This document shows positions 5,074 to 56,861 of a stretch of 64,000 bases of DNA, piece after piece. Origin of the DNA: Escherichia phage vB_EcoM-E33; the sequence record OL780484.1. One strand, 5' to 3'. The position numbers and the translations under genes were made by a program. Position 1 is the stretch's first letter. Every line of letters starts with the position of its first letter. The notes under the pieces are model-generated. The model was given only the letters and a program-made list of their open reading frames with translations. It ran no database searches and had not been told where the DNA came from.

Positions 5074-5091
5074 CTGACTGAGGAAATTATT

Positions 5092-5421
5092 ATGAACAAG
5101 CTTAATATTGTTAATGAACTTCGTCGTTGTGCAGAACCTACTCAAGAAGGTTGGGACATTTGGTACCACGGTGCTTATCTCGGCACTATTGTTAAGATTA
5201 AAGCAGGTAAATACTTAATCATCCGTGGTGGTTCTGAAGCTTCTATGGGAATTCGCAAAAACTTTATGGCAGCAATCAGCACCTTTGTTCCGGCGGCCTA
5301 CGAAGTTTATAAAGCGGACTACAAAGAATACCAGGAATCACAGCCGGTTATTCGTTCAATTGGTGTTAATAAAGCTCAACAGAAAACTTTATGGCAACGT
5401 GTTAAAGGATGGTTCAAATGA
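5092..5421 (+). CDS. hypothetical protein, 109 aa
   Basis: ORF track; RBS GAGGAAATTATT. Confidence 0.5.
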   Translation: MNKLNIVNELRRCAEPTQEGWDIWYHGAYLGTIVKIKAGKYLIIRGGSEASMGIRKNFMAAISTFVPAAYEVYKADYKEYQESQPVIRSIGVNKAQQKTLWQRVKGWFK

Positions 5422-5756
5422 TTCCGATGGAACTTGACTGGGACGGCGAAGGCCATTCCCTTAAATTAATCGAAGAGCAGCGTAATGATTGGGACGAGCG
5501 TGTAGCTCTGGTAAACGGTATTAAGAAAATTTATCAACTCAATCTCCAGATTGATAACGTTCATCTTGAATTTGGTATGCAGTTATTACGATTTCTTGAG
5601 ATTATTTTTATTGAAAAGGTAAATATAACTTCGTATGGCGAGGGCCAAACAGTTGATATTAAATTATCATCCTATTATAAAGGTGATTTAATTGAAACTG
5701 CCACCAAAATTCAAGAATTTGCTAAAGATAATGGCCATAAGGTGATTTTCAAATGA
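5409..5756 (+). CDS. hypothetical protein, 115 aa
   Basis: ORF track; overlaps neighbours. Confidence 0.5.
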
Positions 5757-6241
5757 ACCCATTAAAAGGTAAAGAATTATCCTTTAAAGACCGTATGGCC
5801 TTGTTGGATAAAGCTCTTTCTCGCGAGACTCCTGAAAGTCTAGCAGCTAAATTACAGGCCTATGGTGATTACACCGAATATACAGAAGAGGATGTTTTAG
5901 AAGAGGTTCCTGAAATCTGTTGGCAAGTGGCCCATTGGTGTGAAGACCAAAAATTCCAGCGTCGAATTGTGTGTGCTGCAAACCGTTTTAAGTTAAAAGA
6001 TGGTGGAACTCTGGTTATTCCTGCGACACGTCATTACTCTAAAGATATGGGTGCGGTTATCAAGGCAGTTGAAGATAAATTGGTAACACGATTTGTCTGT
6101 GATGATGACCAAGGCTTTGTCGACCAATATGGTAATTATTGGACTCGTGAAGAAGCAATGATAATTGCAACATATGCTAATCAGGTTCGTATTGAACGTG
6201 GTGGTAGTGAAAAAGAACTTTACTCTGAGGACCTTTACTAA
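5753..6241 (+). CDS. hypothetical protein, 162 aa
   Basis: ORF track. Confidence 0.5.
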
Positions 6242-6522
6242 TGAATCTTAAACAACTTCAAATCGATGCAATCGAAACCCATATTAATCATGTTAAACGA
6301 CTGAATGTCATGCTGGAAGACAACTGGGGAACTTATGTCAACCAACCGGCTTGGGATGCTTTAGACCACGAATATATAAAGAATATTAGTTCTAAGACAA
6401 TCCACGGGAATATGGAAGGTTTGAAGCCGTTCCTACGTGATATGTATATTGCAACTAATAAAGAAATTATCAGCTCTCTTGAATATCAATTAAGGAAATT
6501 ACGTGAACAATCTGGTAGCTAA
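6241..6522 (+). CDS. hypothetical protein, 93 aa, in the arn/arn.x cluster position
   Basis: ORF track; size and position near asiA; Arn identity not verifiable from memory. Confidence 0.45.
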   Translation: MNLKQLQIDAIETHINHVKRLNVMLEDNWGTYVNQPAWDALDHEYIKNISSKTIHGNMEGLKPFLRDMYIATNKEIISSLEYQLRKLREQSGS

Positions 6523-23966: not shown

Positions 23967-24260
23967 ATGAGAGTTTGCAGAGTTGTTAACAAGTATAAAG
24001 AAGACTTTGATGTCAATATCCAACGTGGAACTATGTGGGGTAATCCATTTAAAGATGGAACCCGCGAGGAAAACATCAAGAACTTTAAAGAATACTTTAT
24101 TGCTAAAATAAAATCGGGCGAAATTAAAAGAGAACATCTTGAAACCCTTAGAGGTATGCGTATAGCGTGTACCTGTAAACCTAAGGACTGTCATGGGGAT
24201 GTGATAGCCCTGGTTGTTAACAAACTTTTCAAAGACACGTTCTCATTAGAAGACCTATAA
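23967..24260 (+). CDS. hypothetical protein, 97 aa, with a C-x-C-x5-C-x-G motif
   Basis: ORF track. Confidence 0.5.
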   Translation: MRVCRVVNKYKEDFDVNIQRGTMWGNPFKDGTREENIKNFKEYFIAKIKSGEIKREHLETLRGMRIACTCKPKDCHGDVIALVVNKLFKDTFSLEDL

Positions 24261-24269
24261 ATATCAGTC

Positions 24270-24296
24270 CATGCTTAACAGGTTCTATGATAGAAT
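24270..24296 (+). promoter_or_regulatory. possible MotA-type middle promoter upstream of nrdA (TGCTTAA then TAGAAT); a TATAAATA late-type motif also lies at 24256..24263
   Basis: motifs read from sequence. Confidence 0.35.
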
Positions 24297-24326
24297 AATT
24301 ATAGAACCTAACATATTGAGGAAATT

Positions 24327-34577: not shown

Positions 34578-34635
34578 TATGCTTTAAGAATAGCGTGTTA
34601 TTATTAATCTATCAACAAAACAATATGGATTAAAT

Positions 34636-34959
34636 ATGGAACTTCCTATTAAAGCGGTCGGAGAATATGTTATTCTCGTTTCCGAACCAAAACAAGCTGG
34701 TGATGAAGAAACTACTGCATCTGGTATCGTTATTGGCAAACTTCATCAAGGTGAAATCCCTGAACTTTGTGAAATTTATTCTGTAGGACCTGATGTCCCT
34801 GAAGATTTTTGTGAAGTAGGTGATTTGACTCCACTTCCTGTTGGTAAGATTGCTAACGTGCCTCATCCTTTGGTTGCATTGGGTATTAAACAACCTAAAG
34901 AAATTAAACAAAAATTCGTTACCTGTCACTATAAAGCTATTCCTTGCCTTTATAAGTGA
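34636..34959 (+). CDS. 31: gp31 co-chaperonin (GroES analogue for capsid protein folding)
   Basis: 107 aa; very high similarity to remembered T4 gp31 ([32 protein letters not shown]). Confidence 0.9.
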
Positions 34960-34967
34960 TATAAATA
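34960..34967 (+). promoter_or_regulatory. T4 late promoter TATAAATA immediately after the gene 31 stop; about 140 nt leader before rIII
   Basis: exact TATAAATA. Confidence 0.5.
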
Positions 34968-35105
34968 ATAATATGGATTGGCTGCCGGACTAGTTAGTTA
35001 ACCGGAGAATCCTAAGCGGTGGACTACAACTGAGAGACTTGCCGAAAGGAAGTGAAATTCAGAAGAACGTGTCCACCAATCTTTATCTCGAATTGAGAAA
35101 CTAAA

Positions 35106-35354
35106 ATGAACAAACAATTGAATCACGCTCTTGAACTGCAACGCAACGCTTGGAACAACGGTCACGAAAACTACGGCGCATCTATTGATGTTGAAGCCGA
35201 AGCACTGGAAATCCTGCGTTATTTCAAACATCTGAATCCTGCTCAGGCTACTCTGGCTGCTGAACTGGAAGCTAAAGATGAACTGAAATTTGCTAAGCCT
35301 TTGGCTTCAGCAGCTCGTAAAGCAGTACGTCATTTTATTATTACCCTGAAGTAA
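35106..35354 (+). CDS. rIII: rIII lysis inhibition accessory protein
   Basis: 82 aa; synteny 31-rIII-30.x; size identical to T4 rIII. Confidence 0.7.
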   Translation: MNKQLNHALELQRNAWNNGHENYGASIDVEAEALEILRYFKHLNPAQATLAAELEAKDELKFAKPLASAARKAVRHFIITLK

Positions 35355-35616
35355 GTTAAATCGAGGAGCCGTCGAACTGTTTGATTAATGATTTGCGAAT
35401 CATTATAGTTTTAAGACCCCAACAGTTTTACGGTGTACCTCTTGAATGTATTTTGTACTATCACGCGTCAGAAAAAGGTTATCTGTCTAAGTCGTGGTTG
35501 GTATGATGACGAGGTTTATGGTTATCCTGTCGTTAAATATCCGAAACCTATGTTCCCCTTGAGGGCTTGCGCAGGCAACGCCAATAAGTCCTGCATCCTA
35601 ATTTAAGAGATTTAAA

Positions 35617-35778
35617 ATGGCTAAGAAAGAAGTTAAAGTAGTTGACGGTACCTCTAAACGCGCTGGTTACAAGCGTGCGTCCAACAAGCGTATCAATCAG
35701 GTAGTTGATAAGCTTCAAGCTCGTGCTCGTGCAGTATTGCGTGCAGATGCTGCTTGCTTTGGTAAGCCTCAGGCATAA
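35617..35778 (+). CDS. small basic protein, 53 aa
   Basis: ATG with good context; codon usage like highly expressed genes; followed by a terminator; below the ORF-track cutoff. Confidence 0.4.
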   Translation: MAKKEVKVVDGTSKRAGYKRASNKRINQVVDKLQARARAVLRADAACFGKPQA

Positions 35779-53193: not shown

Positions 53194-53201
53194 TATTTAT
53201 A
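53194..53201 (-). promoter_or_regulatory. late promoter TATAAATA (minus strand) for the gp51-27-28-29-48-54 operon
   Basis: part of the palindrome TATTTATAAATA. Confidence 0.55.
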
Positions 53202-53205
53202 AATA
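53198..53205 (+). promoter_or_regulatory. late promoter TATAAATA (plus strand) for gp26-gp25
   Basis: exact TATAAATA 19 nt upstream of the gp26 ATG. Confidence 0.6.
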
Positions 53206-56819: not shown

Positions 56820-56827
56820 TTATAAAT
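56820..56827 (+). promoter_or_regulatory. late promoter TATAAATA for inh-hoc
   Basis: exact motif about 34 nt upstream of the inh ATG. Confidence 0.55.
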
Positions 56828-56833
56828 ATAGTT

Positions 56834-56841
56834 ATATTTAT
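56834..56841 (-). promoter_or_regulatory. late promoter TATAAATA (minus strand) for uvsW, divergent from the inh promoter
   Basis: plus-strand TATTTATA about 27 nt upstream of the uvsW ATG. Confidence 0.5.
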
Positions 56842-56861
56842 ACACCAACAAGAGACTAATT

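Follow-up and report, generated by a model that had tools for sequence, protein, structure and literature searches.

The spacer between gene 31 and rIII in Escherichia phage vB_EcoM-E33 specifies a conserved, strand-specific RNA of three hairpins (H1, H2 and H3)—an arrangement in which the late-promoter box stands in a fixed register with H1, the Shine-Dalgarno sequence of rIII is masked by H3, and H2 houses an independent RNA motif. The analysis covered a 64,000-nt stretch of the phage DNA (record OL780484.1; hereafter the window), and we conclude that the spacer RNA is real and probably regulatory. Its central hairpin is an instance of an RNA motif that is found widely among viruses and has no curated family. 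rIII is a classic r gene and T4 is the best-studied phage, yet no account of the spacer as a conserved structured RNA seems to have been published. A full-text literature search, with the original T4 papers on the region lying outside its reach, returned nothing on either the leader structure or the motif, and a search with sequence strings matched a cloning primer only. Elements of this kind (structured leaders, masked ribosome-binding sites, terminator-like hairpins) are already known; the architecture and the motif appear to be undescribed.

The gene 31–rIII spacer and its predicted fold

Across 801 bases around the spacer, the window is 99.9% identical to Escherichia phages WG01, IME281 and Bp7, and it therefore derives from a Dhakavirus (a JS98/WG01-like T-even phage). 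The features of the locus are as follows.

34636–34959, plus strand: gene 31 (GroES-like co-chaperonin), from the list of open reading frames and the gene 31 annotation in the 99.9%-identical phages
34957–34959, plus strand: TGA stop of gene 31, the gene upstream of the spacer
34960–34967, plus strand: TATAAATA late-promoter box of the T4 (gp55-dependent) type, a perfect box read from the sequence
34973, plus strand: predicted late transcript start (A), from the T4 late-box rule
34975–35012, plus strand: hairpin H1, from minimum-free-energy folds (−9.4 kcal/mol alone)
35013–35017, plus strand: linker UAAGC, 5 nt, from alignments (4–6 nt in relatives, consensus YUAWRY)
35018–35077, plus strand: H2, a copy of an unnamed RNA motif, from the fold (−18.9 kcal/mol) and covariation
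35018–35024 with 35071–35077, plus strand: helix P1 of H2 (ggtggac/gtccacc), from the fold
35025–35029 (UACAA) and 35063–35070 (AAGAACGU), plus strand: first internal-loop pair of H2, from the fold
35030–35034 (CUGAG) with 35058–35062 (UUCAG), plus strand: helix P2 of H2, from the fold
35035–35036 (AG) and 35054–35057 (GAAA), plus strand: second internal-loop pair of H2, from the fold
35037–35043 with 35048–35053, plus strand: helix P3 of H2, with a bulged G at 35041, from the fold
35044–35047, plus strand: GAAA tetraloop of H2, from the fold
35078–35085, plus strand: AU-rich single-stranded spacer AAUCUUUA, from the alignment and the composition across leaders
35086–35098, plus strand: hairpin H3 (UCUC-GAAUU-GAGA), from folds (−2.2 kcal/mol)
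35106–35354, plus strand: rIII (82 aa, lysis-inhibition accessory protein), from the list of open reading frames and protein alignment A1

A preliminary description of this DNA had placed a late promoter over the gene 31 stop codon, with rIII starting about 140 nt further on. The promoter is there, although its box abuts the TGA and does not overlap it, and the rIII ATG at 35106 indeed lies 138 nt past the box. The T4 late box occupies positions −13 to −6, a rule that would put the start of the late transcript at 34973, i.e., 133 nt before the ATG; the spacer as a whole measures 146 nt. Such a leader had been called unusually long, and within the window this is so: seven of the eight other TATAAATA boxes lie 13–28 nt from an ATG and the eighth lies 58 nt away. 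No second TATAAATA and no sigma-70-like site was found inside the leader. Reviews assign early, middle and late promoters to rIII (PMC9409239, PMC2962797).

Other promoter-like sequences in the window include the sole other late box with a longish leader (24256–24316, the 58-nt case), where one strong hairpin (GGTTCTATGATAG...TTATAGAACC) is followed by GAGG and the ATG. At 53194–53205 and 56821–56842, opposite-strand TATAAATA boxes overlap or stand back to back (TATTTATAAATA) and look like divergent late promoters with leaders of 14–28 nt. Upstream of gene 31, at 34579–34610, ATGCTTTAAG precedes TATTAT, an arrangement kept in T4, ST0 and KP179; judged by eye, this segment looks like a MotA-dependent middle promoter of gene 31. 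The motif AATATGGATT, previously noted both in the leader (34970) and upstream of gene 31 (34622), does occur at these two places, and once more on the minus strand of the 64-kb window. A link between the two copies, however, does not stand: the repeat is a matter of chance, since the window contains repeats of about 25 other 10–11-mers from the leader, and in T4 the sequence ahead of gene 31 has no such motif.

Minimum-free-energy folding of the plus-strand spacer RNA yielded the three hairpins, with a total of −34 kcal/mol for the leader (z = −2.2 against dinucleotide shuffles). H1 begins 2 nt from the predicted late 5′ end and consists of an outer stem (GGAUU/AAUCC), an inner stem (CCGG/CCGG, the ccgg inverted repeat at 34985–34988 and 35002–35005) and a loop containing AGUUAGUUAA. 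The inverted repeats of the preliminary description are thus present, except that ggtggac...gtccacc spans 60 nt and not about 50, and they far exceed chance, since they lie within helices that relatives preserve by compensatory substitutions. The 3′ arm of H3 is the Shine-Dalgarno sequence of rIII. With its 60 nt and its internal loops of 5×8 and 2×4 nt, H2 lacks the compact form of a terminator (a GC-rich stem with a loop of 3–8 nt), which relative L036 does have, and neither of two scans called an intrinsic terminator in the spacer of the window or of T4. A U run does follow the stem (GUCCACC-AAUCUUUAU), displaced and interrupted: it stands 3–4 nt from H2 in both the window and T4, outside the 0–2 nt position.

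Searches with the Rfam 15 covariance models at E-values up to 10 gave no match in this region of the window, in 20 relatives or in the copies of the motif outside T4-like phages, and ARAGORN found no tRNA at the locus. A hammerhead core, a K-turn (Kt-7 GAAGAAC), a hairpin ribozyme and a tRNA-like fold were also considered and rejected, none fitting by eye and Rfam and ARAGORN being negative. Docking of the H2 tetraloop into a receptor in H1 found no clear support in co-conservation: the window has UAUGG/CCUAAG at the base of H1 and GAAA on H2, the T4 counterpart is UAUGA/UCUAUG, and genera that lack a GNRA loop on H2 share this H1 base.

Conservation and covariation of the leader

To the known phages we added 48 further loci taken from IMG/VR. 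T4 shows the same arrangement with a 147-nt spacer, and the box, the long spacer and the hairpins are kept, with covariation, from T4 to phages of Klebsiella, Salmonella, Proteus and Providencia. Spacer lengths vary considerably, from 160 nt in Marfavirus through 125 nt in Karamvirus, 124 nt in Mosigvirus, 115 nt in Jiaodavirus, 101 nt in Gelderlandvirus and 98 nt in Winklervirus to 72–76 nt in Gualtar- and Bragavirus. A perfect TATAAATA precedes rIII in all loci compared save L048 and the Aeromonas locus L012, and it lies at the gene 31 stop in all non-Acinetobacter loci. The architecture was found in 44 distinct leaders from more than 10 T4-like genera, each of which was folded independently by minimum free energy. 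All 44 present the same order—box, about 5 nt, H1, 4–6 nt, H2, 8–10 AU-rich nt (e.g., UUUUAUU or AAAUUUU), H3, about 8–10 nt and AUG. Moreover, the first paired base of H1 is position 1–4 of the predicted late transcript in every one of them, and H3 is present throughout as UCUC/GAGA or CCUC/GAGG, with the GAGG or GAGA always 7–11 nt ahead of the rIII AUG.

Stability alone is a modest signal: z reached −2.2 or lower in 14 of the 15 leaders tested, the exception being T4, whose leader as a whole is about as stable as its shuffles (z = −0.6). The leader is 78% identical between the window and T4, compared with 78% for gene 31, 67% for third codon positions of rIII and 56% for the next spacer. 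In a MAFFT alignment of 12 close relatives, RNAalifold recovered 23 pairs, 10 of which show compensatory double changes and almost none of which is broken. The outer stem of H1 covaries among GGAUU/AAUCC, GAAUU/AAUUC and GAAGAG/CUCUUC. When the 44 leaders were aligned on sequence alone (E-INS-i), 96.7% of the cells in the basal H2 helix were canonical, versus 29–46% with the partner strand slid, with up to four pair types per position; H3 contributes one covarying pair (C-G in CCUC/GAGG versus U-A in UCUC/GAGA). Across the leaders, G·U and A·C cells stand at 16:0, and the fold therefore belongs to the plus-strand RNA. A 77-aa open reading frame on the minus strand (34998–35231), which overlaps rIII, was rejected on the ground that the structure resides on the plus strand (the same 16:0 ratio).

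The preliminary description would have been refuted by an unconserved stretch of 140 nt together with transcription of rIII from another promoter near its ATG; this is not what T-even-type phages display. Among T4-type phages the long leader is old and has been retained.

Within this frame the hairpin interiors are modular: basal helices are kept, and a few unrelated interior types swap between H1 and H2 from genus to genus. At least four unrelated modules occupy the H2 slot. H2 in the simplest relatives amounts to a bare 7-bp hairpin, and UUAUUUU comes next; in L036 the scan scored the slot as a canonical intrinsic terminator, and a U run 0–2 nt after the stem is present in L004, L005, L007 and L036. 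Neither the H1 module nor the H2 module designated b recurs elsewhere in the compared loci. More distant phages have the box and one hairpin only. In the Acinetobacter phages AM101 (L010, 654–694) and Abraxas (L011, 664–703), a GC-rich terminator hairpin lies upstream of rIII; beyond it, TATAAATA is enclosed in a long hairpin, the 3′ arm of which extends to the ribosome-binding site. These are the only relatives with the box inside the masking hairpin, as in T4 genes e, soc and 49 (PMC3014915), and by analogy their rIII would be under temporal control of the gene e/soc type.

The H2 motif within and beyond T4-like phages

The interior of H2 constitutes a free-standing RNA motif: some 30 of its loop bases are invariant, its stems covary and it usually ends in a GNRA cap. 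When the invariant loops (UACAA...AG...GAAA...AAGAACGU) were used as a DNA search pattern, matches came from T-even contigs and from other viral contigs. Matches in bacterial genomes (L084–L090) and several in metagenomes were set aside as chance because the helices are absent, and a metagenome pattern with a longer gap had no match. A covariance model built from 11 copies (R1) detected exactly one copy in the 64-kb window (35016–35079, 91 bits). In an alignment of 17 copies from four contexts (A4), 93% of cells are paired, as against 31–43% with the partners slid; double changes affect 13 of the 17 pairs, and the covariation score was reached by none of 500 shuffles. The loop bases are invariant or nearly so, and most copies are capped by GAAA or GUAA.

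Each T4-like genome that has the motif carries it once, either before rIII or before gene 30.9, and all 829 cultured-phage records with the match have a single matching place. With R1, the motif was found as the last hairpin before gene 30.9 where the gene 31–rIII leader bears another module, and there too it is followed by an AU-rich spacer and a hairpin masking the Shine-Dalgarno sequence. No locus was seen with both positions filled, and many genera have neither. Comparison of PG7-like loci with (L034) and without (L035) the motif revealed no clean insertion footprint, the segments being replaced mosaically. In a few Klebsiella phage records (L007, phage P545, 1145–1288; H236; H238–H240), coding sequences labeled "hypothetical protein" lie over the H2-type motif upstream of 30.9 and may be spurious annotations.

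The spacer downstream of rIII is also long. In the window, 262 nt separate the rIII stop from the ATG of the 30.9 homolog (intergenic region 35355–35616; gene 35617–35778), with pieces conserved across genera: GGTTATCC...GTTAAATATCCGAAACC at 35520–35548, CCCCTTGAGGGCTT at 35555–35568 and a hairpin slot at 35569–35596. Jiaoda-, Marfa- and some Karamvirus phages have the H2 motif at the corresponding position, and in KP179 the whole rIII–30.9 spacer (370 nt) is highly conserved. This spacer looks like a second structured leader, for gene 30.9.

Outside T4-like phages, the motif lies near or between tRNA genes or in regions without open reading frames, and no homolog of rIII, 30.9 or gp31 was found beside it in the stretches examined. 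It stands between tRNA-Glu and tRNA-Thr in L131, 240 nt past tRNA-Pro in L128, and between tRNA-Leu and tRNA-Gly in the tRNA arrays of three AT-rich metagenome contigs (L094, 8728–8791; L095, 1602–1665; L099, 2520–2583). One of these contigs is 785 kb long and full of ORFans; most of its open reading frames have no Pfam match, and it is therefore probably a very large virus. The 45-nt interior in L095 is identical to that of Mosigvirus ST0, and the near-identity of the tRNA-array copies with those of RB69-type coliphages suggests, on sequence grounds, a recent transfer. In L072, L073 and L125, the motif resides in a region of about 1 kb free of open reading frames, between tRNA genes and terminase genes of an unrelated tailed phage. 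The ggtggac...gtccacc hairpin reported in the preliminary description is accordingly real without being specific to this leader, given its occurrence before 30.9 and in the tRNA arrays of unrelated viruses.

The region in L072 (1938–3016), L073 (about 5462–6290, minus strand) and L125 spans roughly 0.8–1.1 kb, is conserved among these three uncultured contigs and has no Rfam match; it may encode a large unannotated non-coding RNA. In L072, a group I intron (5076–5291; Rfam, 57 bits) interrupts the large terminase gene.

Short, single-copy, strongly covarying and carried by a genetically tractable phage, the H2 motif lends itself well to testing as a candidate new functional RNA; it is shared with uncultured viruses, in which it lies among tRNA genes. 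More speculatively, the hairpin might represent a new class of structured RNAs carried by viruses, of which it would be the first to be noticed. Members would be about 60 nt long, with a GNRA cap and two internal loops that are purine-rich and invariant, and would have moved among T4-like phages, huge AT-rich viral genomes (within the tRNA arrays) and unrelated tailed phages. Such an RNA might bind a conserved factor of the cell or the virus, for example as a decoy, an aptamer or a modifier of RNA polymerase or the ribosome, and in T4-like phages expression of the lysis-timing genes rIII and 30.9 would be coupled to it; we hold this idea tentatively.

Possible functions of the spacer RNA

Our preferred reading, to which we give roughly even chances of being correct, is that the spacer is a composite post-transcriptional control region—combining end protection, a leaky stop and Shine-Dalgarno masking—joined to an H2 motif that binds a partner. 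From the structure, conservation, strand and motif distribution observed here, we infer its functional steps as follows. The spacer RNA would have two roles, as the 3′ untranslated end of gene 31 messages from upstream promoters and as the 133-nt 5′ leader of the late rIII message from the TATAAATA box; the long structured late leader proposed in the preliminary description holds good but is incomplete, the same RNA also being the gene 31 3′ UTR on read-through transcripts.

At the late 5′ end, H1 would probably act as a shield from 5′-end-dependent attack by RNase E/G, like other 5′-terminal stem-loops. Stabilizers of this type are known from the E. coli ompA leader and the T4 gene 32 leader, with which the spacer shares a hairpin within a few nucleotides of the (predicted) 5′ end and a long leader; H1 differs from them in having lineage-specific conserved loop sequences, for which a pure end-cap would have no need.

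Since the U run is degenerate in this phage, H2 would probably be a leaky stop or a 3′-end protector for gene 31 RNA, and its interior an independent motif that is probably the binding site for a partner. Intrinsic terminators and attenuators offer a partial parallel. In L036, KaAlpha, Melville and P545, the slot in the promoter-to-gene interval holds a GC-rich stem directly followed by UUUUAUU or UUAUUUU, whereas the H2 of the window and T4 has 60 nt, large internal loops, a displaced U run and no competing antiterminator fold. The put RNAs of HK022 form a promoter-proximal, two-hairpin antiterminator. The leader resembles them in its two adjacent stem-loops with conserved internal loops just past a promoter, heading a long transcription unit, but one of its hairpins is itself a terminator-like element, and we know of no sequence similarity between the two.

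Pairing of H3 with the Shine-Dalgarno sequence would keep translation of the antiholin RIII low and make it dependent on the AU-rich standby stretch immediately upstream. Hairpins that mask Shine-Dalgarno sequences are known for T4 genes e, soc, 49 and I-TevI (PMC3014915). As in those cases, a hairpin pairs with the ribosome-binding site of a gene that is reached by upstream early or middle transcripts and also has a TATAAATA promoter. The rIII leader departs from gene e in that the late promoter lies 130 nt upstream, in the window and in all T-even-type genera, with two more hairpins preceding H3 (119 nt separate it from the box in the window); consequently, the late transcript retains both arms of H3. 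If the leader does control the supply of RIII, it would offer a handle on how lysis inhibition is sustained.

Several observations weigh against a control region. H3 is weak (−2.2 kcal/mol), and no terminator was called in the window or in T4. If expression of rIII were all that mattered, placing a late promoter ahead of a terminator-like hairpin would be an odd arrangement. In addition, a generic role in stability or termination leaves unexplained the invariant loops of H2 and its copies in tRNA arrays without a downstream gene.

In the main rival explanation, which we regard as possible but doubtful, H2 would be the functional unit and the rest packaging. Freed from the leader, or in other viruses from pre-tRNA transcripts, by cleavage in the AU-rich stretches on either side, it would act as a small stable RNA or as a decoy or aptamer for a conserved host or viral factor, and its link to rIII would be one of location only. 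Consistent with such a unit are the approximately 30 invariant unpaired bases, the covarying helices and the GAAA/GUAA cap across four contexts; the restriction to one copy per T4-like genome where present, before rIII or before 30.9 and never both; the copies between tRNA genes (L131, L094, L095, L099), near tRNAs (L128) and in regions free of open reading frames (L072, L073, L125); and the 45-nt interior shared without change by Mosigvirus and the AT-rich 785-kb contig. However, the same spacer and Shine-Dalgarno hairpin follow the motif at both T4-like positions, which suggests a role in cis, and many T4-like genera have other modules or a bare hairpin in the slot. The location of the non-T4 copies among phage tRNA genes recalls the T4 stable RNAs C and D (species 1 and 2), but kinship was rejected for want of any sequence or structural match, R1 finding nothing in the T4 rnaC/rnaD/tRNA locus (L118).

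A further comparison concerns the "promoter-early stem-loop" (PeSL) cassettes of T4-type phages, reportedly described by Arbiol et al. in 2010 as mobile, multi-copy and linked to early promoters. The H2 motif is like them an intergenic stem-loop module shuffled between positions and between T4-type genomes. Unlike them, it is single-copy per genome, is associated with a late promoter or with no nearby promoter and has invariant loop nucleotides; the single copy in the 64-kb window departs from the multi-copy character of PeSL- or REP-like cassettes.

The order of promoter, structured domain, terminator-like hairpin, Shine-Dalgarno hairpin and gene is also that of a regulated attenuator or riboswitch, and the loops are invariant as in aptamers. 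On this hypothesis, a ligand or protein bound to H1 or H2 would set passage of the H2 U-stretch or the opening of H3, thus tuning rIII to the state of the infected cell, e.g., in lysis inhibition. We think it unlikely: no alternative pairing of the antiterminator or anti-sequestor kind emerged from prediction or from conservation, each genus has one dominant fold, the slot accommodates at least four unrelated modules, no Rfam riboswitch matches, and the motif is present also where there is no gene to control.

Equally improbable, in our estimate, is that the hairpins serve gene 31 alone, as terminator and 3′ stabilizer of its early and middle messages, with the late promoter overlap and the position of H1 being incidental. 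The hairpins do begin 15 nt past the gene 31 stop, and the H2 slot is terminator-like in several genera; nevertheless, the register of H1 to TATAAATA is fixed (1–4 nt from +1 in the 44 leaders) despite wide variation in sequence and size, and H3 and the AU-rich spacer are tied to the start of rIII, not to gene 31.

Finally, a conserved leaderless micro-ORF (ATG at 34973, MDWLPD then stop) can be dismissed almost outright, for although the window, T4, Mosigvirus and Jiaodavirus all have an ATG coinciding with the predicted +1, the peptide varies in sequence and in length (2 to 18 codons), the ATG is replaced in Karam-, Gelderland- and Winklervirus by GTA, which is no start codon, and the substitutions are compensated in the H1 stem. 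One further variant of this 5′ end comes from a T2 "escape mutant" (L062, PV648364.1, 316–330), in which the gap between box and H1 is three bases shorter than in T4 (TATAAATAATATG); the shortening would shift the late start into the H1 stem.
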